Of a stretch of 37,629 nt of DNA, positions 499 to 37,473 are shown piece after piece. Origin of the DNA: an uncultured bacterium (GTDB lineage Bacteria > Hinthialibacterota > Hinthialibacteria > Hinthialibacterales > Hinthialibacteraceae). How positions within the stretch are numbered: the first letter of the stretch is position 1; each line of letters opens with the position of its first letter. The notes beneath the pieces are model-generated. The model did no database searches, was not told where the DNA came from, and saw nothing but the letters and a program-made list of their open reading frames with translations. The DNA lies in NCBI GenBank assembly GCA_964449065.1, contig CAYVAZ010000007.1, positions 1-37,629 on the forward strand. The letters are read 5' to 3'. A program made the position numbers and the translations under genes.

Positions 499-1929
499 TT
501 ACACCACCCGTAGATTATTAGCAGCAGAAAAGCGTTTAATCTTGCTGAAGGTTTTCGGGGTGCAGGGGCCTTCTCCGGTGGCGCCGGCGATGGTGTAGGC
601 GGTCCAGCCTTCGCCTCCGTAGCCTAGGACCGCCCCGCACGAACCGTTGGAGACAAACAGGTTCACTTTGATCTTTGTGGCGAAATAGGTGATGCGGTCC
701 ATGCGCTGGCTGTGGATGATGGCGGTGTGGCCGAACCCGTGTTCGGCTTCGACGGCGTAATCGACGGCCTGCTCGAAGGTATCGCAGCGCACGCAGCCCA
801 AAATCGGCATCAATAATTCATTGACCACAAAGGGATGGTTGCGGTCCACTTCCGCCAGCAGCAGTTCGCAGTTGGAAGGCACTTGCAGGTTGATGCTTTG
901 GGCGATCTTGGCGGCATCCTGCCCCACCCAATCGCGGTTGACGTGGTTGTCTTCGGTCAGCACCACTTTCATCACGGCTTCGACTTGGCTTTGGTTGAGC
1001 AGATAGGCCCCGCGGTTTTGCATCGCGGTTAAGAATTGGTCATACACGCTGGAAAGAATGAAGGCTTCTTTTTCGCAGATACAGGGCATATTGTTGTCGA
1101 AGGTGGCTCCTTCATAAATGCGGCTGGCCGCGGTGGGCATATCGCAGGTTTCATCGACGATGACCGGCGGGTTGCCCGGTCCGGCGACGATGGCTCGTTT
1201 GGGGCTTTCCATGGCGGCGCGAACGACGGCAGGGCCTCCAGTGGCGACCAGCAGTTTGATATCGGGATGCGTCATCAATTCTTTGGCGGTGCGCAGGGTT
1301 GGTTTGGATACGGATGTTAATAAGTTTGCCGGGGCGCCGGCAGCGACCAACGCGCGGTTGATGTCTTGCATACATTTCAAGGTACATTCAACGGCGCTGG
1401 GATGCGGCCCGAAGACTACCGAGTTCCCGGCGGATAGCATGGCGATGGAGTGGTTAATGACGGTCGCGGTTGGGTTGGTTGAAGGGGTAATTGTGCCAAT
1501 CACGCCGAAGGGCGCGTACTCTTGAATCATCAAGCCTTTGTCGCCGGTGACGCAGGTGGTGGTGAGTTCTTCCACGCCGGGGGTGAGTTCATACGCCAAG
1601 GTGTTTTTGACAACTTTGTGATCGGCGCGTCCCATGCCGGTATCGGAGACGGCCAGTTCCGCCCAATCGCGCGCGTGCTGTTTGGATGTATCGCGAATCA
1701 CTTTGATGAAGCGTTTTCTGTCGTTCAGCGGCATGTCTTCCAATTGGCGCTGGGCATAAGCGGCGGCTTTAATGGCATCATTGACGTCCTCAAACACCCC
1801 GTCGCGGCCTCCGCTGACGGCGCCGCCCGCGCAGGCGATGGCGGGTTGAGGGCCAGTGGTGCTGCCGTTTTGTTTTTGCAGTTCCTGCACAACTTTTGTG
1901 ACGATTTCGGCTATGTTTTGTTCGTTCAT
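499..1929 (-). CDS. CoA-acylating aldehyde dehydrogenase (EutE/PduP family), BMC-encapsulated
   Basis: Motifs PFGVIGTITPSTNP, LLVATGGPAVV, GPGNPPVIVDET, catalytic DNNMPCICEKE and ELLMPIL; N-terminal amphipathic peptide MNEQNIAEIVTKVVQEL. Confidence 0.92.
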   Translation of the reverse strand: MNEQNIAEIVTKVVQELQKQNGSTTGPQPAIACAGGAVSGGRDGVFEDVNDAIKAAAYAQRQLEDMPLNDRKRFIKVIRDTSKQHARDWAELAVSDTGMGRADHKVVKNTLAYELTPGVEELTTTCVTGDKGLMIQEYAPFGVIGTITPSTNPTATVINHSIAMLSAGNSVVFGPHPSAVECTLKCMQDINRALVAAGAPANLLTSVSKPTLRTAKELMTHPDIKLLVATGGPAVVRAAMESPKRAIVAGPGNPPVIVDETCDMPTAASRIYEGATFDNNMPCICEKEAFILSSVYDQFLTAMQNRGAYLLNQSQVEAVMKVVLTEDNHVNRDWVGQDAAKIAQSINLQVPSNCELLLAEVDRNHPFVVNELLMPILGCVRCDTFEQAVDYAVEAEHGFGHTAIIHSQRMDRITYFATKIKVNLFVSNGSCGAVLGYGGEGWTAYTIAGATGEGPCTPKTFSKIKRFSAANNLRVV

Positions 1930-1984
1930 TTTTTTATCCCTAATATGTGTTTCTTAGTTTTGTTCTATTTTTCGCATACTGAAC

Positions 1985-2016
1985 TTCTGGCTCGGCGGGA
2001 GCCTCGCCCTCCCAAT
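1985..2016. repeat. REP-like palindromic repeat (GGCTCGGCGGGAGCCTCGCCCTCC family)
   Basis: A near-identical copy lies at 31554-31587. Confidence 0.7.
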
Positions 2017-2030
2017 GGCTCGCTTGCGCG

Positions 2031-2068
2031 AGTGGTGGGCTACGCTTCGCTTTGAGCCCACCCTACAA
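2031..2068. repeat. GTAG-family REP palindrome, 38 bp, copy 1
   Basis: AGTGGTGGGCTACGCTTCGCTTTGAGCCCACCCTACAA is identical at 3076-3113; stem GGTGGGCT/AGCCCACC with a CTAC (GTAG) tail. Confidence 0.85.
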
Positions 2069-2072
2069 AAAA

Positions 2073-2100
2073 ATCTCTAAACTCTAATATCTAATCTCTA
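2073..2100. repeat. 4x heptamer tandem repeat (A(T/A)(C/A)TCTA)
   Basis: Reads ATCTCTA AACTCTA ATATCTA ATCTCTA, abutting the stop codon of the flavoprotein-like gene. Confidence 0.55.
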
Positions 2101-2994
2101 ACTTTGTTTCGGTACGATTACGACTTCGATTCCTCTGCGTTGGAGGACGTCCAATGCGAGAGGGGTGATTAACCCGCCGCGTGAGACTTTCACGACCGGA
2201 CCGGGCAGCGTTTCGGCATCTTCTTCAGTAATGAGAGTGGAGATCAGGTCTGCTCCGCTCTCGGTGATATTTAAAACGATTCTGGTGATTTTCTGAACGG
2301 TTTCTTCAGCGGATTCAATGCGCATTCCCATGGTGCCCAAGTGGTTGCGGTAGTTTTGCAAGACATCTTGAATGCCGGGCACGTTATTCCCGCACACGAT
2401 GCATGCGGTGGGAAGCAGGCCCTCTTCGGTTGCATAAACCGGAACCTGCTGTGCCAATGCCGCGATGGTGACGTTGAGATATAGGTTATCGGTGATCCCC
2501 AATGCGAGTTTGGCGGCGCTGTTGCGGCTCATCGATGGCAGAAAGACGGCGCTGTAGCGTTTGAGATCATACATCAAGTTCCAGATTTCTTTAGGATTTT
2601 CAATCGGATTGATCCCCAGGCGTTGGATTTCTTCATTGCCGATAATTTCACGGCCATTGGATGAGAAGATGCCGTCGAGGTGGATTCCTTTTTGGCGCCA
2701 ATCTAAAAACGCGCTGCTGATGACATCCCACTTTTCTTTGGCCCCGCTAAGAAGCGATAGGATTGCGGGGCCGTTTGGTTTGGAAATCGTTGCTTGGGGT
2801 TGAGGTGTTGATTGTGATGCGATTGACGGCTGCGTAGATGGATTGAAAAAACCGCAGACCGGGCCCTTGCACGCGTTGGGGTAAACGGTTTCGGTGGGTG
2901 AGGGCGGCAGCATCATGCTTTGTTCGAGTTCGCGCTGCGCCATCACTTGCTGTACGGCATCTTGAACGATTCTGTCTAGGTATTTTAAATCCAT
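2098..2994 (-). CDS. BMC-associated flavoprotein-like protein (HFCD-type fold) with encapsulation peptide
   Basis: 'VFLPSMSRNSAAKLALGITDNL...AALAQQVPV' is the flavoprotein motif; the C-terminal 'LITEEDA...GGLITPLALDVLQRRGIEV' domain is of the type seen in BMC loci; N-terminal LDRIVQDAVQQVM helix followed by a P/S/Q-rich linker. Confidence 0.7.
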   Translation of the reverse strand: MDLKYLDRIVQDAVQQVMAQRELEQSMMLPPSPTETVYPNACKGPVCGFFNPSTQPSIASQSTPQPQATISKPNGPAILSLLSGAKEKWDVISSAFLDWRQKGIHLDGIFSSNGREIIGNEEIQRLGINPIENPKEIWNLMYDLKRYSAVFLPSMSRNSAAKLALGITDNLYLNVTIAALAQQVPVYATEEGLLPTACIVCGNNVPGIQDVLQNYRNHLGTMGMRIESAEETVQKITRIVLNITESGADLISTLITEEDAETLPGPVVKVSRGGLITPLALDVLQRRGIEVVIVPKQS

Positions 2995-3075
2995 TCAACT
3001 GAAATCACTTCTCCGTATTTGGTTGTTCATGGTGGGTCATAGAGACGCGACCGACCTAACAAATTTGCAGATACA

Positions 3076-3113
3076 AGTGGTGGGCTACGCTTCGCTTTGA
3101 GCCCACCCTACAA
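3076..3113. repeat. GTAG-family REP palindrome, 38 bp, copy 2 (degenerate relatives at 3031-3060 and 3114-3127)
   Basis: Identical to 2031-2068. Confidence 0.85.
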
Positions 3114-3155
3114 GAGCCCATCCTATAAATTGAGCCTTACATAAATGAATCCTAT

Positions 3156-3866
3156 TTATACGATAATTTCCACCATCTCGCCGCCGCGCAGTCCGCAGGC
3201 GTTGCCGTCATCGGTATCGAGATGCATTTCATCCAAGTGTGCTTTGTGTACGCGAACCTGGCAGTCTTCCAGCAAGGTCGTTTTATGGGTTTTCACCCGG
3301 ACTTTTACGGATTGATTATCCGTCAAGCCCCATTTTTCCGCCGAATTAGTTGATACATGGACGTGGCGGTTGGCGAGGATGACACCTTTCTCAAGGTGAA
3401 CGACACCGACCGGGCCGACCAAGATCAAGCCGACACTGCCTTCATGGTTTCCTGATGGATTCACAGGGGGATCAATCCCCAAATAAATCGCATCGGTTCG
3501 TGAGACTTCAACTTGCGTTGCCGGGCGCAATGGCCCAAGCACGCGAACCTCACCCATGCAGCGCATCCGTGGGCCGACCAGCGTTAACGCTTGCTTGGCG
3601 GCGTATTGTCCCGGCTGATAGAGATCGCGCATCGGTTCAAGTTCGGAGCCGGAGCCGAACAGGATATCGAGATGCTCACGGCAAAGGTGAATGTGGCGAA
3701 CCGAAATGTTGCAGGGAACCAACTTCTTACCGGCGTTTGCCGGAACATGAACCGGGGACGATGGCGCATGCGCGGTTGGCGATGGAGCGGATACGCTGGA
3801 GCGGTACCGCTCCAGTACCTGGCGCGTCACTTGTTCGATTAGTTGCGAATCGATTTTAGTACTCAT
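3156..3866 (-). CDS. pduL: Phosphate propanoyl/acyltransferase PduL with encapsulation peptide
   Basis: Motifs SVRHIHL, LYQPGQYAA, VRVLGPLR..TQVEVSRTDA, RHVH and EMHLDTDDGNA; N-terminal IEQVTRQVLER helix plus Pro/Ser linker. Confidence 0.93.
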   Translation of the reverse strand: MSTKIDSQLIEQVTRQVLERYRSSVSAPSPTAHAPSSPVHVPANAGKKLVPCNISVRHIHLCREHLDILFGSGSELEPMRDLYQPGQYAAKQALTLVGPRMRCMGEVRVLGPLRPATQVEVSRTDAIYLGIDPPVNPSGNHEGSVGLILVGPVGVVHLEKGVILANRHVHVSTNSAEKWGLTDNQSVKVRVKTHKTTLLEDCQVRVHKAHLDEMHLDTDDGNACGLRGGEMVEIIV

Positions 3867-14718: not shown

Positions 14719-16233
14719 CTAAAACATCATACCCGGGCCGTGGCATTCGTGGCAGTTTTGGCCTTCCCACATATCGCCAAAATCACGGGGATGAACGAAT
14801 TCTTGCTCTTTATACTCTAACTGTTTATATTCATCCCATCCTTCTCCTTGCCGGGTAATGGTATGGCAAAGGTTGCAATCGTTGGAGACGATCTTGCCGG
14901 ACGCGGTTTTATGCTGATCATCGTGGCAGCGATAACAACCGGGGAATTCATAGTGCCCGATATGGGTGGGGTAGTTCGTCCAATCCGCACCTTGCTCCGG
15001 GAAAAAGTTGGTTTGATAAATTTGTTTAGCCGCTTCAATCGCTTGATTGACCGGTTGTTCCAATGCCGCATCTTCAACCACCATTTCGTCATAGATGGAA
15101 TGCATTTCCGAATCGATGGATTGCAATGCTTCTTCGGTGGTTTCATACTCCATCCCAAGCAACTCAACCAAGACCACTTTTATTTCCGGTACAGAAGGGT
15201 CTATTTCGCCTTCTAACAAGGCTTTATTCACGGCGGTGTAGGGTGAGTCAAACTTATGCGAAGGGCGGTTGTGGCAGTCAATACAATCCATCGTACGGAT
15301 TTCTTCCTCTGGTATCTCTTTCGGATCAATCGGGTTTTCCTCGTCGATAAACTCGTCTATCGTTCCGTCATCATAGGTGATCCGTATCCACGGGATATCC
15401 AGCCGGTCTTCATCCCGGGCGTAATACTCTAGCGTATGATCCAGTCCGATATGCCAGTGAATGCTTTGGTGGTCATATTGATCCAGCGGATCTTTTCCAA
15501 CATGCAGCTTTAAATCCACCCGGTACGGGGTGTTTTCTTCATCCGAACCGAAATACACCAATTCTTTTTCAACCGAATCGTAGAACTTTTCCGGCCAATG
15601 GCACTGCTCGCAAGTATCACGAGCTGGGCGCAAATTGCTGATCGGTGTTTCAATGGGCAAATGATAGGAACCGGTCGCTACCGCATACAACTGCCACGCG
15701 CCGGATAGTTTGCTGCGGACAAACCAATCCGCACCGGGACCGATATGGCACTTGACACAATCCACATTCGCGTGGGGAGAATTCTGATAAGCCGTATATT
15801 CCGGGATCATCACTTGATGGCACATCAAACCGCAAAATTGATTCGATTCCGTGATATGATAGGCTTTGTAAGAACCCACGCTTGTGAGAACAAGAAAAAC
15901 AGCGGTGAACACGCTGAAAACCGCAATGTATTTTTGATCATGGCTTCGGTTTAGATCGATGACCGGCAGTTTTCGTTTTACTATATTTTTCACGATTCTC
16001 CGGTATTCCAGCCACATGCCGAACGGAACCAACAACAAGCCGAACACCAATATCGATGGGCCTATTACATAGATCAAAATTCCCACATAGGCATTGGTAG
16101 AGTGCTGCATCATATCAATTGCGATGATGACAATTTCTCCCACCAAAAAGACCAATGCCAAAATAAAACCAAACAACGAAATAAAATTATTAAATAATTC
16201 TTGTGTGGTTACAGGTTCCCACTTTTTGTTCAT
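14719..16233 (-). CDS. ImcH-like inner-membrane heptaheme cytochrome c (NapC/NirT family quinol dehydrogenase)
   Basis: Three N-terminal TM helices; NapC/NirT core 'TESNQFCGLMCHQVM.PEY..Y.NSPH..V.CVKCHIG...K.SG..QL'; heme motifs CGLMCH, CVKCH, CEQCH, CIDCH, CYRCH, CNLCH and CHECH; 504 aa; AAGGAG RBS. Confidence 0.85.
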   Translation of the reverse strand: MNKKWEPVTTQELFNNFISLFGFILALVFLVGEIVIIAIDMMQHSTNAYVGILIYVIGPSILVFGLLLVPFGMWLEYRRIVKNIVKRKLPVIDLNRSHDQKYIAVFSVFTAVFLVLTSVGSYKAYHITESNQFCGLMCHQVMIPEYTAYQNSPHANVDCVKCHIGPGADWFVRSKLSGAWQLYAVATGSYHLPIETPISNLRPARDTCEQCHWPEKFYDSVEKELVYFGSDEENTPYRVDLKLHVGKDPLDQYDHQSIHWHIGLDHTLEYYARDEDRLDIPWIRITYDDGTIDEFIDEENPIDPKEIPEEEIRTMDCIDCHNRPSHKFDSPYTAVNKALLEGEIDPSVPEIKVVLVELLGMEYETTEEALQSIDSEMHSIYDEMVVEDAALEQPVNQAIEAAKQIYQTNFFPEQGADWTNYPTHIGHYEFPGCYRCHDDQHKTASGKIVSNDCNLCHTITRQGEGWDEYKQLEYKEQEFVHPRDFGDMWEGQNCHECHGPGMMF

Positions 16234-16300
16234 ACCGACACACTCCTTTAGAATTTTTCATGAAAAAATGGCAATATTTATCCGAAACCGATTTCAGCTC

Positions 16301-16335
16301 TTGATCATTGTACACTAATAAGATAAAATTGTAAG
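16301..16335. promoter_or_regulatory. Overlapping divergent sigma70-like promoters of the cytochrome cluster
   Basis: Plus strand: TTGATC(16301)-17-TAAAAT(16324-16329). Minus strand: CTTACA(16335-16330)-17-TACAAT(16312-16307). Confidence 0.45.
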
Positions 16336-16413
16336 TATATCAAATAATTGGTTTCGAGGTTCGGTTGTTCGATTCCAGCAACCAATTCGATTCACTTTTG
16401 CAGGAGGCCGTTC

Positions 16414-16959
16414 ATGAAAAAATTATTCGCTCTGATTATCGCTATCGCCAGTCTTGTGGTTTTGCTTCAACCGCAGCAGGTTTCCATCGGGCAGGAAGAC
16501 GAGCCGGAATTTGTTGGTGTAACCAAATGCAAGCTTTGCCACAATAGACGATCCACCGGAAAATTTTTGGACAATTGGGAAGAAAGCGTCCACGCCAAAG
16601 CGTTTGATTTATTAAATGACGAGGAAAAGAAGAACCCCGAATGCTTAAAATGCCATACCACAGGCTACGGCAAACCCGGCGGGTTTGTCAGTTTGGAAGA
16701 AACCCCGAAAATGACCAGCGTGCAATGCGAAATGTGCCACGGCCCGGCGGAAAAACATGTGAAGTCCAAAAAAGATGATGTCATTCCATCACCATGGAAA
16801 CCGGAAGCCAAACGCTGTGAAACCTGCCATCAAGAAGAAGGCAATCCAAACTGGGATCCGGAAAAATACACCAAACCGGATGGAACCAAAACCGGGTTCT
16901 ACTATGAAGAAGCCGTCAAGAAAGTTAACCACAGCGCCATTTTAGAAGACAAAAAATAA
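16414..16959 (+). CDS. Periplasmic tetraheme cytochrome c (c554-like domain)
   Basis: Signal peptide MKKLFALIIAIASLVVLL; 'FVGVTKCKLCH..W..S.HAKA..L...CLKCHTTGYG.PGGF...VQCEMCHGP..H...CETCH'; AGGAGG RBS. Confidence 0.9.
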   Translation: MKKLFALIIAIASLVVLLQPQQVSIGQEDEPEFVGVTKCKLCHNRRSTGKFLDNWEESVHAKAFDLLNDEEKKNPECLKCHTTGYGKPGGFVSLEETPKMTSVQCEMCHGPAEKHVKSKKDDVIPSPWKPEAKRCETCHQEEGNPNWDPEKYTKPDGTKTGFYYEEAVKKVNHSAILEDKK

Positions 16960-16987
16960 GTTGAAAAGAAACCGATTGGATTGCTGA

Positions 16988-18406
16988 GTGAACATGCATA
17001 ACAACACTACAACATCGACGATAAAGCATCATGATCAGCGTTCGCTGATCATGATGCTTTTGATTGTTTTCACGGTTCAAATGGGCTGGAGCCAGGAACA
17101 GGAAGGAAGCGGGAAAGTTGATTCCGCTACACCATCTTGGTTCAGCCAAATGGATATCTCGGGAACCTATCACTTCACCTATCAGTTTCGCAATACCGGC
17201 AGCGTTGATGACAACGATCTGTTTCAATATCTATCCCTGAATGTCAAAAACGTATGGAAAGACCGCATTGATATGCACTTTTCCATGCTGTGGCACGAAG
17301 ACTTGGATGACGATTCCGATTTACGAAGTTTTGACAATTTCGACCCGTTTTTGGATATTGATCAAGCCAACAACAATGCGGTTCGGGTCTTCACCGGTTA
17401 TGCCAACGTGAAAGACTTGGTTTTCGATGACAGCGAACTTCGTTTGGGGCGGCAATACTTCGAAGAGATTGATCACGTACACTTTGACGGCGCCGCGTAT
17501 ACCTTCGAACCCATTGACCGTTTGGAGGTGGCACTCTTCGGCGGGGAACCGGTGGCGTTTTATTCCTCCACGGCGGGAGACGCGGTTTACGGCACCAACC
17601 TTGCTTACCGCTTCACCCCTCAAACCAAAGCGGCCTTGCGCTATTACCGCTATGACGCCGACCCGTTTACGGATGATCTGGCCGCCGCGGAAATCTGGCA
17701 CTTGTTGAATCAATCCATCCAAGCCCATGCCGAATTTTCGTTACTGGACGGGAAGCCGTACATTCTCCAGGGAGACCTGCTCACCCGGTTCGATGCCATC
17801 GATTTGGACACCACCTTCCAAATCGTGCATCTGTTTGAGTCGATAGCCGATCAAACCTTAAATTTCAATCCGGTATTCCCGTTGTTGAACTCACACGAAC
17901 CATTCACACGGGTGTCTGTAAATACCATAAAAGGGATGGGGGATTATTGGAGTTTGACCGCGGGAATTGATGTGCTGGAAGCCGAACAAGCGGATGCGGT
18001 TACCAACTTCACCAACCGTGACTTTCAACGGTATTCGGCCGGCGTGGAAGTATACCCCATCGAAACCGTGACCGTTAGTGTATCCGGTGAATATTGGGAT
18101 GTGGATCCGAACGATGAATTCACCGGCATCACCGGTGAAGTGGAATACGAACCCACGCCGAAGTGGACTCTCTCCGCCGGGGTGGATTACGGAGAGTATG
18201 TGCAGGAATTCCGCGACGAGTTTTTGTTCAATTTTGGGGACAACTCCATCTTTCGTGTCTCACCGGATGTGATTACATATTTCAGCCGCGTGCGGTGGAA
18301 ACCGAGAGAAAACGTATTTTCAAACCTTTGGTTTGAAGTGGAAGATAACGACGTAGACCAAGACGAATTTTACAGCGTTCGTGTTGAATTAGGGATTCAT
18401 TTCTAA
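16988..18406 (+). CDS. Outer-membrane beta-barrel, putative porin of a porin-cytochrome conduit
   Basis: Signal-like segment 'SLIMMLLIVFTVQMGWS'; alternating aromatic/hydrophobic strands (LRLGRQY, HFDGAAYTF, WTLSAGVDY); C-terminal beta signal YSVRVELGIHF; lies between two cytochrome genes. Exact start uncertain. Confidence 0.8.
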   Translation: MNMHNNTTTSTIKHHDQRSLIMMLLIVFTVQMGWSQEQEGSGKVDSATPSWFSQMDISGTYHFTYQFRNTGSVDDNDLFQYLSLNVKNVWKDRIDMHFSMLWHEDLDDDSDLRSFDNFDPFLDIDQANNNAVRVFTGYANVKDLVFDDSELRLGRQYFEEIDHVHFDGAAYTFEPIDRLEVALFGGEPVAFYSSTAGDAVYGTNLAYRFTPQTKAALRYYRYDADPFTDDLAAAEIWHLLNQSIQAHAEFSLLDGKPYILQGDLLTRFDAIDLDTTFQIVHLFESIADQTLNFNPVFPLLNSHEPFTRVSVNTIKGMGDYWSLTAGIDVLEAEQADAVTNFTNRDFQRYSAGVEVYPIETVTVSVSGEYWDVDPNDEFTGITGEVEYEPTPKWTLSAGVDYGEYVQEFRDEFLFNFGDNSIFRVSPDVITYFSRVRWKPRENVFSNLWFEVEDNDVDQDEFYSVRVELGIHF

Positions 18407-19347
18407 TGAGAAAAGAAACGATTACACTCAACCTGTTTTTGCTTGTCGGTATCATGATGTTCGTGGCTTCGTGCGACGAAGAGATGGTGAAGTACACCTT
18501 CCCGCACCAACCGCACCATGAGCAGGAAATGACGTGCGACATGTGCCACGAATTGGACGACAACGGTAGTATGGCCATGCCCGTCTTCGATACGTGTCTC
18601 ACCTGCCACGAAGGCGAGGCGGAGTATTTTGAAAGTTGCAACGCCTGCCACACCGACCCGCCCGCGCAGGAACTGGACGGCGATCTTCTCGTTTCCCATC
18701 AAAACCTGTTTCAAGAATACATGCCCGCTGGATGGAACGATGTGCAAATGGATCACGAAGCCTATATTGACATGGATGAAGGGAACTGTTTGGCTTGTCA
18801 TGAAGAAATTCAAAACAGCGCGCACTCTTCGTTAGCCAATCTGCCCAACATGGAACACACCATGGATTTTCATGACGAACACGGTTTATCCAACGAGTGC
18901 AGCGCCTGCCATTTGGAACTCAATAAGCTGACACCGCCGGCAAGCCATGATCAATCCTGGGACCGGCAGCACGGCTTTGCCCGCGAATTTCAAGACATGG
19001 ACAGCTGCCTGTTGTGCCACGAACAGGAGACCTGCACAACCTGTCATCAAACACAAAAACCCAGAAATCACAACAACCTTTGGCGCAAACAAACCCACGG
19101 CATACAGGCCGCGTTTGAACGCGACAGCTGCTTGGTCTGCCACCGCAACGATGAGTGCACCACATGCCACGTGGCGGCATCGCCACCCATACCCGGGGCA
19201 TCCTTCCACAATCCCAGCGCGGATTGCATGGCATGCCACGCACCGGCAGGCGCCCCACGGCCCGCAAACCGGTTTCTTAAACCCATGCCCCACCGCATGA
19301 TGATGGGCATGACGGCACAAAAATGCCTGGCCTGCCACATGTTCTAA
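18406..19347 (+). CDS. 11-heme cytochrome c lipoprotein (two c7-like modules, two diheme repeats, two C-terminal hemes)
   Basis: Lipobox FVAS-C; CxxCH motifs CDMCH, CLTCH, CNACH, CLACH, CSACH, CLLCH, CTTCH, CLVCH, CTTCH, CMACH and CLACH; TAATG overlap with the porin stop. Confidence 0.9.
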   Translation: MRKETITLNLFLLVGIMMFVASCDEEMVKYTFPHQPHHEQEMTCDMCHELDDNGSMAMPVFDTCLTCHEGEAEYFESCNACHTDPPAQELDGDLLVSHQNLFQEYMPAGWNDVQMDHEAYIDMDEGNCLACHEEIQNSAHSSLANLPNMEHTMDFHDEHGLSNECSACHLELNKLTPPASHDQSWDRQHGFAREFQDMDSCLLCHEQETCTTCHQTQKPRNHNNLWRKQTHGIQAAFERDSCLVCHRNDECTTCHVAASPPIPGASFHNPSADCMACHAPAGAPRPANRFLKPMPHRMMMGMTAQKCLACHMF

Positions 19348-35628: not shown

Positions 35629-37473
35629 ATGAATGACAGATTCTCCCGAATAAACGCATCTGTACGTAACATTCTCATTCTTATTCTATTTCCATCTGTC
35701 TTGCCTGCGTGGAGCGGAGGCCCTTTGATTATTCAAAACGATGGAACCCCAACTTTATGGGATGTGGAGGGAGGCAATAACCTGCCAATACGCTTCTCCC
35801 TTGATGAAGGCCGGTTGGGAACATTTTCCAATTCCACCGCCAAACGGTTGGTTCGTGACGCGTTTGAAATTTGGGAGGATGTGAACGATGCAATCCTGAT
35901 CTTCGAAGAAGACCCTTCGCAGATCAATGAAGATATTACCGCGGATAATTTCAATGAAATCACCAACCGCATTACCACCACGACCGATAACATCGTCGTG
36001 GTGTTTGACGATACCGGGGAAATTATCGACGACCTGTTCGGCAGCGGATCGCGCAACAATGTGTTGGGGCTGTCTTCTCCATTGGTGTTTTTTGTAGGCG
36101 GCAATGAAGTTATCGCTGCCGCGATCTTTATACTCAATGGACATTTTATTGAGGAGAACAACTTTCAGTCCCGCGAATTCTTTCCAACCGTTGTTCATGA
36201 ATTGGGACATGCATTGGGACTGGATCACGCGCAAATTTTAAACCACTTATCCAACAACGGTGTGGGGAATGACGATATGTATTTACCGATCATGCATCCG
36301 TTGTCTTCTGATGATGAAAGCCAACGTGACCAGCTCACATTTGATGATGCTGTTTCGCTGGCCAACTTGTATCCAACAACCTCTCATCGGGTGAATACCG
36401 GCCAAATCGCCGGGACCGTATTTCGCGGCAATACCGATGTTCCCGGTGTCAATGTCATCGTGCGTGACCCGGAAGATCCGCTGGAAAGAATTACGTCTAC
36501 AGTATCGGGATTGTTCGCTCCCTTTACCGGTGAGTACATTGTAAACGGTCTTCCGCGCGGAGACTATGAAGTCAAGATTGAACCCATTGATCCCAACTTC
36601 ACCGGCGGCTCCAGTGTCGGTCCTTTTAGCGAAGACCTGAACGGCGCTTCTTTTATTCGGCCGGTTCGCAGTGAATACTACAACGAAAACGATGCCATCG
36701 ATGAAGGCCGCAGCAAACGAAGTCTGGTCGAAGTTGACCGCGGAAATACGACGGGAGGAATCGACATTCATGTGGAACCGGACCGGGTTACTCTTGATGA
36801 ACGAAACTCTATTTTTTTGCCGATCGGCTCAACGGAAGTTGGAGGAACAGTATTTGAAGAAACCCTGTTGCTGCATCCCAATGGGGATGAAGGACGTGTT
36901 GAAGTCGCGATTGACTTTCAACGCTCTTCAAACAACCGCGTCCTCGTCCATCGTGGTGCTATTAACGCTCCGGTTTTGCATGAAGAAACCAACAACAATG
37001 ATAAAACGATCGTGTTTTCTCCAAGTGGTGATGTACCTTTGGAACGTGACGAATACTTTATCCAAATCATCAATTTATCCTCATCTGAATTGGAATTTAC
37101 CGTCGAAACCACCATTGAAGACGAACCCACCCCCACACCAACCCACACGTTCACCAATACGCCAACTCCAACCCGAACATTTACCCCAACGGATACGCCC
37201 ACAAACACCGCTACGCCGACGCGTACAAATACGCCGTCCGATACCCCCAGTCCGACAGAAACCTTTACTCCAATGCCAACCCCAACATTTACACCCACCC
37301 CTACTTTTACAGCAACGCCGACATTCATCCCTTTGGATTTGTTTGAGGACGATGCCCTATCTTCTAAAGATGTATTGCGTTTCGCCGTACTTTGGGAAGA
37401 AACCGCGAACGCAGCCAATGTAGAAACCGTAAGGCTTCAACTGTTGCGGTGGGTGGGAAGTTTTTCTCAATAA
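35629..37473 (+). CDS. Secreted matrixin-like (metzincin) zinc metalloprotease with carboxypeptidase-regulatory-like domain and Pro/Thr linker
   Basis: Signal peptide; [11 protein letters not shown] zinc motif; Met-turn IMHP; '[19 protein letters not shown]'; (PT)n linker; short C-terminal module. Confidence 0.85.
37125..37330 (+). repeat. Low-complexity Pro/Thr coding linker
   Basis: [22 protein letters not shown]...; codons vary, so the repeat is at protein level. Confidence 0.85.

Follow-up and report, generated by a model that had tools for sequence, protein, structure and literature searches.

Does a single locus in an uncultured bacterium of the Hinthialibacteraceae (phylum Hinthialibacterota) encode a path for electrons from the quinone pool to the cell exterior? 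The question is raised by four genes on a 37,629-nt stretch of DNA (GenBank assembly GCA_964449065.1, contig CAYVAZ010000007.1, positions 1 to 37,629; hereafter the window), in which an ImcH-family inner-membrane quinol oxidase lies back to back with a c554-like tetraheme cytochrome, a predicted outer-membrane beta-barrel and an 11-heme lipoprotein cytochrome (Table 1). We found that the barrel and the lipoprotein cytochrome are the fixed unit of this locus, and that the locus is real and conserved and is probably an extracellular electron-transfer module. The reading that we favor, with a probability of about 0.68, is an outward electron path from menaquinol through ImcH, the tetraheme cytochrome and the lipoprotein inside the barrel to an acceptor outside the cell.

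The window is contig C7 of the genome G000 (86.7% complete); G, L and P labels denote genomes, loci and proteins, respectively. Open reading frames (ORFs) and motif counts confirmed what a first-pass annotation of the sequence had described: four genes, 22 heme motifs (7 + 4 + 11), the 180-bp spacer and the overlap of the last two genes, in which the barrel stop codon TAA and the lipoprotein ATG share one base (TAATG, translational coupling). The spacer is exactly 180 bp when the tetraheme gene starts at ATG 16414, which has AGGAGG ahead of it; the TTG start given by the ORF finder (16348) lies upstream. The genes are not chance reading frames, because full-length orthologs of all four were found in most of 35 related genomes. 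A Tat sulfatase gene and cysS flank the locus, and neither is a constant neighbor in relatives.

Table 1. Features of the electron-transfer locus in the window.
Feature	Coordinates	Strand	Remarks
ImcH-family inner-membrane quinol oxidase, 504 aa	14719..16233	-	three transmembrane helices; CX3CH + 6 CXXCH; PF03264
Divergent spacer, 180 bp, probable back-to-back promoters	16234..16413	.	operator search negative
Secreted tetraheme cytochrome, c554-like, 181 aa	16414..16959	+	PF13435; 4 CXXCH; likely periplasmic shuttle
Predicted outer-membrane beta-barrel	16994..18406	+	470 aa from ATG (472 from GTG 16988); 22 strands, plug-free model
11-heme lipoprotein cytochrome, 313 aa	18406..19347	+	lipobox VAS|C; 11 CXXCH; likely wire through barrel

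The barrel and the lipoprotein cytochrome

The lipoprotein gene directly followed the barrel gene in 28 of 28 readable members of the class (contig ends truncate the loci of G001 and G023, which are not counted among them) and in all 31 barrel genes outside the phylum (9 + 9 + 13 anammox). The fixed unit is the barrel plus the lipoprotein cytochrome, and the conserved barrel partner is this protein instead of the tetraheme cytochrome. Such a pair is syntenic elsewhere, but the four-gene back-to-back layout was rarely seen; as a conserved unit we rejected it, having found it only in G000, G010, G001 (last gene cut off) and G009 (ImcH remnant). The conserved partner of outer-membrane conduits has been described as the periplasm-side cytochrome (Otero 2018). 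Because the pairing is invariant, in line with that conduit pattern, and because the anammox pair lacks the tetraheme, the lipoprotein is the likely barrel insert.

The barrel sequence ends in ...VELGIHF. An AlphaFold2 model predicted an open outer-membrane barrel with 22 strands and no plug (mean confidence, pLDDT, 80.9; predicted template-modeling score, pTM, 0.71), a strand number within the range of 18–22 given for porins of porin–cytochrome (Pcc) clusters (Shi et al. 2014). The best matches in a fold search were barrels of 22–24 strands (Z 19.2; root-mean-square deviation, rmsd, 5.2; 359 aligned), and MtrB was matched with Z 16.3 (rmsd 6.2, 345 aligned), which is a likeness of shape only. 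The protein is acidic (isoelectric point, pI, 4.2). A profile search collected 772 clusters at 50% identity, while Pfam and NCBIfam assigned no family, although some of 42 members had weak hits to barrels, and a PDB sequence search with the barrel gave no match. The ESM Atlas returned unnamed clusters only, and its label "TIGR03016 PEP-CTERM" was rejected, as NCBIfam had no match of this kind.

In the lipoprotein, a c7-like N-terminal module precedes C-terminal two-heme repeats, and homologs have been lengthened through repeat gain from 11 to 26 hemes. All 18 family rows retain ten distal histidines, a CXXCK motif is absent, and the hemes look bis-histidine ligated. Its model was of moderate quality (pLDDT 73.7, pTM 0.55) and had no Foldseek hit at E ≤ 0.001. 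Residues 3–148 aligned with ActA below the trust level (best VIA Z 5.6, rmsd 4.1, 126 aligned), and the C-terminal half had no fold match. Against the MtrA-type model TIGR03508 the protein scored 18.5 bits versus a cut-off of 192 (E 0.001).

Two further barrel genes were observed. P0272 is a 1123-aa protein in which the barrel-family part is preceded by a long membrane-protein region, presumably related to ResB. In the window's genome, another barrel gene, only distantly related to the first, precedes a gene for a lipoprotein-like cytochrome that has at least 10 hemes and is cut off where the contig ends (G000:C232:5545-8096, L070); orthologs of this barrel were close in 3 of 34 relatives and weak in 4 more.

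The ImcH-family protein and the tetraheme cytochrome

ImcH proteins are described as having 495–519 aa, three transmembrane helices, one CX3CH and six CX2CH motifs (Zhong & Shi 2018). The 504-aa protein has three N-terminal hydrophobic stretches (12–45, 46–75 and 101–122), a PF03264 match, a CX3CH at C134 and six CXXCH at 159, 208, 317, 433, 453 and 494, with a spacing that follows that of Geobacter sulfurreducens GSU3259, whose motifs lie at 132, 156, 205, 311, 428, 448 and 486 (Zhong & Shi 2018, Table S3). The two proteins were compared by published motif and residue positions rather than by sequence alignment. Key residues reported for GSU3259 (E127, H137, K173, Q179 and Y188; ImcH bioRxiv study) recur at a constant offset of +2 as E129, H139, K175, Q181 and Y190, which include the Gln ligand of heme 1 (Q181) and the quinol-site Glu, Lys and Tyr (E129, K175, Y190); these residues are kept in 111–120 of the 120 homologs listed. 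The protein thus agrees with all published sequence criteria, and its first-pass identification as ImcH holds. Its relatives form a very large family (7607 of 8000 candidates scored), and a wide distribution of ImcH has been reported (Levar 2014). A PDB sequence search with the protein found no homolog. According to Zhong & Shi (2018), imcH often adjoins cytochrome genes, not mtrAB or mtoAB.

ImcH fragments were also observed. In G009, all that remains of the gene is three fragments within ~700 bp (G009:C2:357860-358568) beside intact tetraheme, barrel and lipoprotein genes. Two other loci (L052:12450-13046 and L055:5436-5981) carry, between the lipoprotein and OmcA genes, a small gene that resembles only the N-terminal membrane part of ImcH, with one heme motif.

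The tetraheme cytochrome matched PF13435 (E 5e-18), and its profile matched the c554 structure 1bvb over its full length (E 3e-22), with four hemes. It scored below the NF043010 cut-off and is not the Nitrosomonas equivalog; three distal histidines are conserved for the four hemes. Among the 28 readable genomes, the gene was found within the barrel locus in 19, before the barrel in 17 and after the lipoprotein in 2, and it adjoins ImcH instead of the barrel in G004, G020, G033 and G034. The gene thus moves between barrel and ImcH, so that the tetraheme is probably a periplasmic shuttle, and it is a candidate non-PpcA partner for ImcH.

Distribution in the class and features of the host

Across 35 genomes of the class, we found the barrel in 30, the lipoprotein in 29, ImcH in 26 plus one remnant, CbcL-like proteins in 26 (two cytochrome-b-only matches left out) and OmcA/MtrC proteins in 23, and none of 26 distant genomes had the barrel. 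All 23 OmcA-positive genomes carry the barrel, and the five barrel-negative genomes had no ImcH, lipoprotein or OmcA matches. Close barrel homologs are labeled Candidatus Omnitrophota in databases, including one from SURF_12 (L050, 53% identical), a genome placed in OLB16/Hinthialibacterota (Williams et al. 2022).

The loci of relatives carry an inserted 8–9-heme cytochrome, CbcL-like proteins with 11–19 hemes, HmcBC-like genes and OmcA. Their OmcA/MtrC matches were above the curated cut-off (TIGR03507), and the decahemes examined had no obvious lipobox. In most relatives, the kit is thus enlarged by CbcL-type quinol oxidases together with secreted 8–10-heme cytochromes. G000 has a reduced form at this locus, and its only sign of CbcL is a possible N-terminal fragment where a contig ends. 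The MtrB model TIGR03509 matched neither the window barrel nor any other protein in the 35 genomes in a search made without a positive control, which agrees with the first-pass view that the parts are unlike the decaheme MtrA/MtrC pattern.

The genome of the window contains mqnC of the futalosine menaquinone route, COX1 and matches to the heme-maturation proteins ResB and ResC, besides ActA-like, NrfHA-like and Hmc-like cytochromes, with the ActA-like and COX1 genes on one contig. Its 47 sulfatase matches at E ≤ 1e-20 bear out the earlier description of the host as a heterotroph using polysaccharides and sulfate esters.

A short V-x-x-W tail forms the C terminus of many 8–9-heme and OmcA-type cytochromes in relatives (L028:3190-5100, L023:8530-10590 and L080:10551-12599, among others). 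In G000, 48 of 2754 long ORFs have this ending, compared to 0–1 at control positions, and 41 of the 48 have signal-peptide-like starts. Elsewhere in G000 (G000:C361:265-3540, L072), HmcBC-like Fe-S and NrfD genes accompany a 13-heme c3-type cytochrome, a trio that adjoins ImcH in G006, G027, G029 and G031.

Occurrence in other phyla

A sample of 201 genomes of the Kiritimatiellia, the class of a Pontiellaceae record, included 16 with the barrel. All eight Kiritimatiellia loci read had a 9-heme gene, the barrel and a lipoprotein with 12–26 hemes, and the order ImcH, tetraheme, 9-heme, barrel, lipoprotein, with ImcH divergent, recurs in four of the class's loci (L062, L063, L100 and L106). In the family of a Thioalkalivibrio record, 2 of 55 genomes had the barrel; one locus (L098) encodes the tetraheme, the barrel and an 11-heme lipoprotein at 43–45% identity. 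At its two ends, the L098 barrel has the same sequence as P0032, a protein labeled T. paradoxus. The surroundings of this operon (L098:1-5384) are consistent with a mobile region, and the adjacent genes are, we presume, those of a type I-F CRISPR-Cas system.

Porins of Brocadia, Jettenia and Kuenenia are also homologs of the barrel (Kuenenia, 28% identical over 429 aa, E 1e-41). Of 26 anammox loci fetched, 13 were read, and in 13 of 13 the porin was followed by a 13–14-heme homolog of the lipoprotein (~340 aa, E ~1e-58), with no match to the c554-like tetraheme. P0443/CAJ74787 is presumably the kuste4024/4025 pair, judging from size, heme count, gene pairing and an accession offset rather than from a locus tag. 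The two-gene Pcc cluster of Kuenenia consists of a porin and a 14-heme cytochrome of 338–344 aa (Shi et al. 2014, PMC4245776), and expression of its ortholog has been reported for Brocadia grown on electrodes (Shaw et al. 2020, PMC7188810). Judged by homology, the barrel–lipoprotein core is not new and belongs to this described Pcc subtype (Shi et al. 2014).

The spacer and upstream palindromes

Sigma-70-like matches occurred on both strands at 16301–16357; overall, 12 were found and 8.1 ± 3.2 expected, which is chance level, and a terminator scan was also within chance. Scans with FNR, CRP, Rex and Fur consensus motifs gave no good match in the 180-bp spacer. In the loci of relatives, the palindrome TAGCTA-NN-TAGCTA lay upstream of 26 of 137 multiheme ORFs versus 2 of 517 other ORFs, and within AT-rich upstream regions the counts were 19 of 31 versus 0 of 20 (shuffles: mean 0.6, maximum 3), for a motif that had been chosen by eye in sequences partly included in these counts and whose sites are shared by divergent genes. 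It occurred in ~12 family genomes and one Pontiellaceae record (for example L022:3858, L028:1093 and 9257, L030:3656, L078:5710 and L063:5163).

Proposed electron path and alternatives

In the proposed path, ImcH would oxidize menaquinol in the inner membrane and the tetraheme cytochrome would shuttle the electrons across the periplasm. The lipoprotein, whose lipid anchor is probably on the periplasmic side, would hold its C-terminal heme repeats inside the barrel and pass the electrons through the outer membrane to an acceptor outside the cell, which may be an Fe or Mn oxide, humic matter or a partner cell. The outward direction is preferred because ImcH is implicated in quinol oxidation. The mechanism is supported by the mqnC and ResB/ResC matches of the host, the plug-free barrel model, the quinol-site residues of ImcH and the barrel's neighbors in relatives, which are electron-transfer genes (CbcL-like, OmcA/MtrC and HmcBC-like).

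Several observations weigh against this path. In the 30 barrel genomes, ImcH was at most 10 kb from the barrel in 11 (including G000 and the deleted remnant in G009) and clearly apart in 11; contig ends left 5 unresolved, and it was not found in 3. The compact single-locus pathway first proposed therefore stands in some genomes only, since half of the resolvable genomes (11 of 22) have ImcH away from the barrel; the arrangement is not the rule and is one of several. The genome holding L057 lacks ImcH, and none was found near the Thioalkalivibrio operon (18 kb) or in the 13 anammox loci read. The co-occurrence counts rest on kin (three of the five negatives belong to one genus) and on incomplete genomes, and one relative has a lipoprotein paralog without an adjacent barrel (L107). 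The TAGCTA-NN-TAGCTA palindrome is absent from the 180-bp spacer at up to 3 mismatches, and no shared operator could be identified; therefore, co-regulation, another first-pass claim, has no sequence support here. An Asp follows the lipid cysteine of the lipoprotein, so that the anchor membrane could be either one; in E. coli, Asp at this position is an inner-membrane retention signal. The 9-heme and OmcA/MtrC (TIGR03507) genes were not found in G000. A conduit that reaches the surface, as suggested earlier, is in keeping with the conduit-type gene pair, but with the relatives' surface 8–9-heme and OmcA/MtrC cytochromes not found, surface reach in G000 rests on the 11-heme protein or on genes left unassembled. 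Pcc clusters are also described in organisms that do not reduce Fe or Mn oxides (Shi et al. 2014).

The same conduit might have another topology, as in OmaB-OmbB-OmcB, with the tetraheme inside the barrel and the 11-heme lipoprotein as the surface terminal. The surface components of Geobacter conduits are lipoprotein cytochromes (Otero 2018), the window encodes no other surface cytochrome, and 17 genomes have the tetraheme immediately before the barrel (2 have it after the lipoprotein). We consider this topology improbable, given that the tetraheme is a globular c554 homolog for which 9 of 28 readable genomes have no gene in the barrel locus, which lies beside ImcH instead in G004, G020, G033 and G034, and which has no match in the 13 anammox loci read. 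Alternatively, the wire may be real but direction-neutral or inward, taking up electrons from minerals, sulfur or partners toward ACIII and an oxidase, with ImcH loosely tied to it. The Thioalkalivibrio operon without a nearby ImcH and the ActA-like and COX1 genes on one G000 contig would fit, as would the account of two-gene conduits without a surface cytochrome as typical of Fe(II) oxidizers (Shi et al. 2014). However, ImcH is implicated only in quinol oxidation, the host is a sulfatase-rich heterotroph, and ImcH co-occurs with the barrel and is linked to it in two phyla, so that this reading appears unlikely.

A third explanation dispenses with outward transfer: the barrel would admit a soluble acceptor (quinone-like organics, polysulfide or oxyanions), to be reduced by the lipoprotein within the periplasm. 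ExtI-type clusters of Geobacter are tied to selenite and tellurite (Otero 2018), and the acidic barrel and the Asp after the lipid cysteine are compatible with such a role. There is, however, no catalytic subunit as a constant neighbor, the hemes look bis-histidine ligated and the lipoprotein lengthens, wire-like, to 12–26 hemes; OmcA/MtrC decahemes also co-occur, with no MtrB found. We therefore hold periplasmic reduction to be rather improbable and retain the outward path from menaquinol through the lipoprotein in the barrel.

Relation to known systems

The closest described system is the anammox two-gene Pcc cluster (Candidatus Kuenenia kuste4024-kuste4025), which likewise pairs a homologous barrel with a cytochrome and has no MtrC-like gene. 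It differs in having 13–14 hemes rather than 11, whereas here ImcH and a c554-like tetraheme join the pair and the host is heterotrophic; the anammox cytochrome has been described as periplasmic, yet it carries a lipobox. The 11-heme partner lies within the 5–14 hemes used to define adjacent Pcc cytochromes, and homology to a listed member is provided by the Kuenenia porin, if its presumed locus tag is right. By gene content, the locus also has the periplasmic multiheme cytochrome, barrel and redox lipoprotein of a three-part conduit (Otero 2018), and the synteny suggests that the two cytochromes have other roles than in that scheme.

Compared to the G. sulfurreducens system (GSU3259 and PpcA with OmbB-OmaB-OmcB, ExtABCD or ExtEFG), the locus shares the ImcH architecture and quinol-site residues, a multiheme partner and the class of 18–22-strand barrels, a comparison of Geobacter porins by class and not by sequence. 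It differs in that a c554-like tetraheme replaces PpcA, a separate lipoprotein for the surface is lacking and ImcH is encoded next to the barrel. With Shewanella MtrCAB/OmcA and CymA it shares the principle of a barrel with an inserted multiheme cytochrome, and the TIGR03507 decahemes of relatives are a further likeness; unlike that system, it has a 470-aa, 22-strand barrel that is not of MtrB size and does not match TIGR03509, a lipoprotein partner, and neither a TIGR03508 decaheme nor MtrC in the operon. Nitrosomonas c554 is paired with the NapC/NirT-type cM552. Here too, a c554 fold homolog lies beside a NapC/NirT-family cytochrome, but without a hydroxylamine oxidoreductase context.

Our literature search, which left most subscription papers outside, returned no description of such a locus for either Hinthialibacterota or Kiritimatiellia. 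Genes for metal reduction or iron cycling have been noted in OLB16 in general terms (Williams et al. 2022 and other literature), and divergent porin–multiheme clusters have been reported in many uncultured phyla. The new aspects are the linkage of ImcH and c554, the class-wide kit and the extendable lipoprotein. If the proposed path is true, a phylum regarded as one of sugar degraders, which have been described as fermenters or as users of oxygen and nitrate, would gain respiration with minerals, humic matter or partner cells, the breakdown of sulfated polysaccharides would be linked to extracellular electron sinks, and a barrel family without a Pfam or NCBIfam model would be tied to the anammox porin–cytochrome pair, whose role is itself a proposal. 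The three-gene operon of Thioalkalivibrio offers a cultured system for testing. More tentatively, Hinthialibacterota and Kiritimatiellia might be overlooked electrogenic polysaccharide degraders with a third conduit architecture, belonging to the same barrel family as the putative anammox conduit. An 11–26-heme lipid-anchored cytochrome would plug the 22-strand barrel, be fed by ImcH and CbcL, and pass electrons on to cytochromes of the OmcA/MtrC and 9-heme types, for which a C-terminal tag particular to the phylum, rather than a lipid anchor or MtrAB, would direct the way to the surface.

Other genes of the window

Near the start of the window (499-3866) lie aldehyde dehydrogenase, flavoprotein-like and PTAC (PduL) genes, a set that we take to be typical of a bacterial microcompartment locus. 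Near its end (35629-37473), the window encodes a secreted peptidase of family M10 whose linker is a long Pro-Thr repeat.

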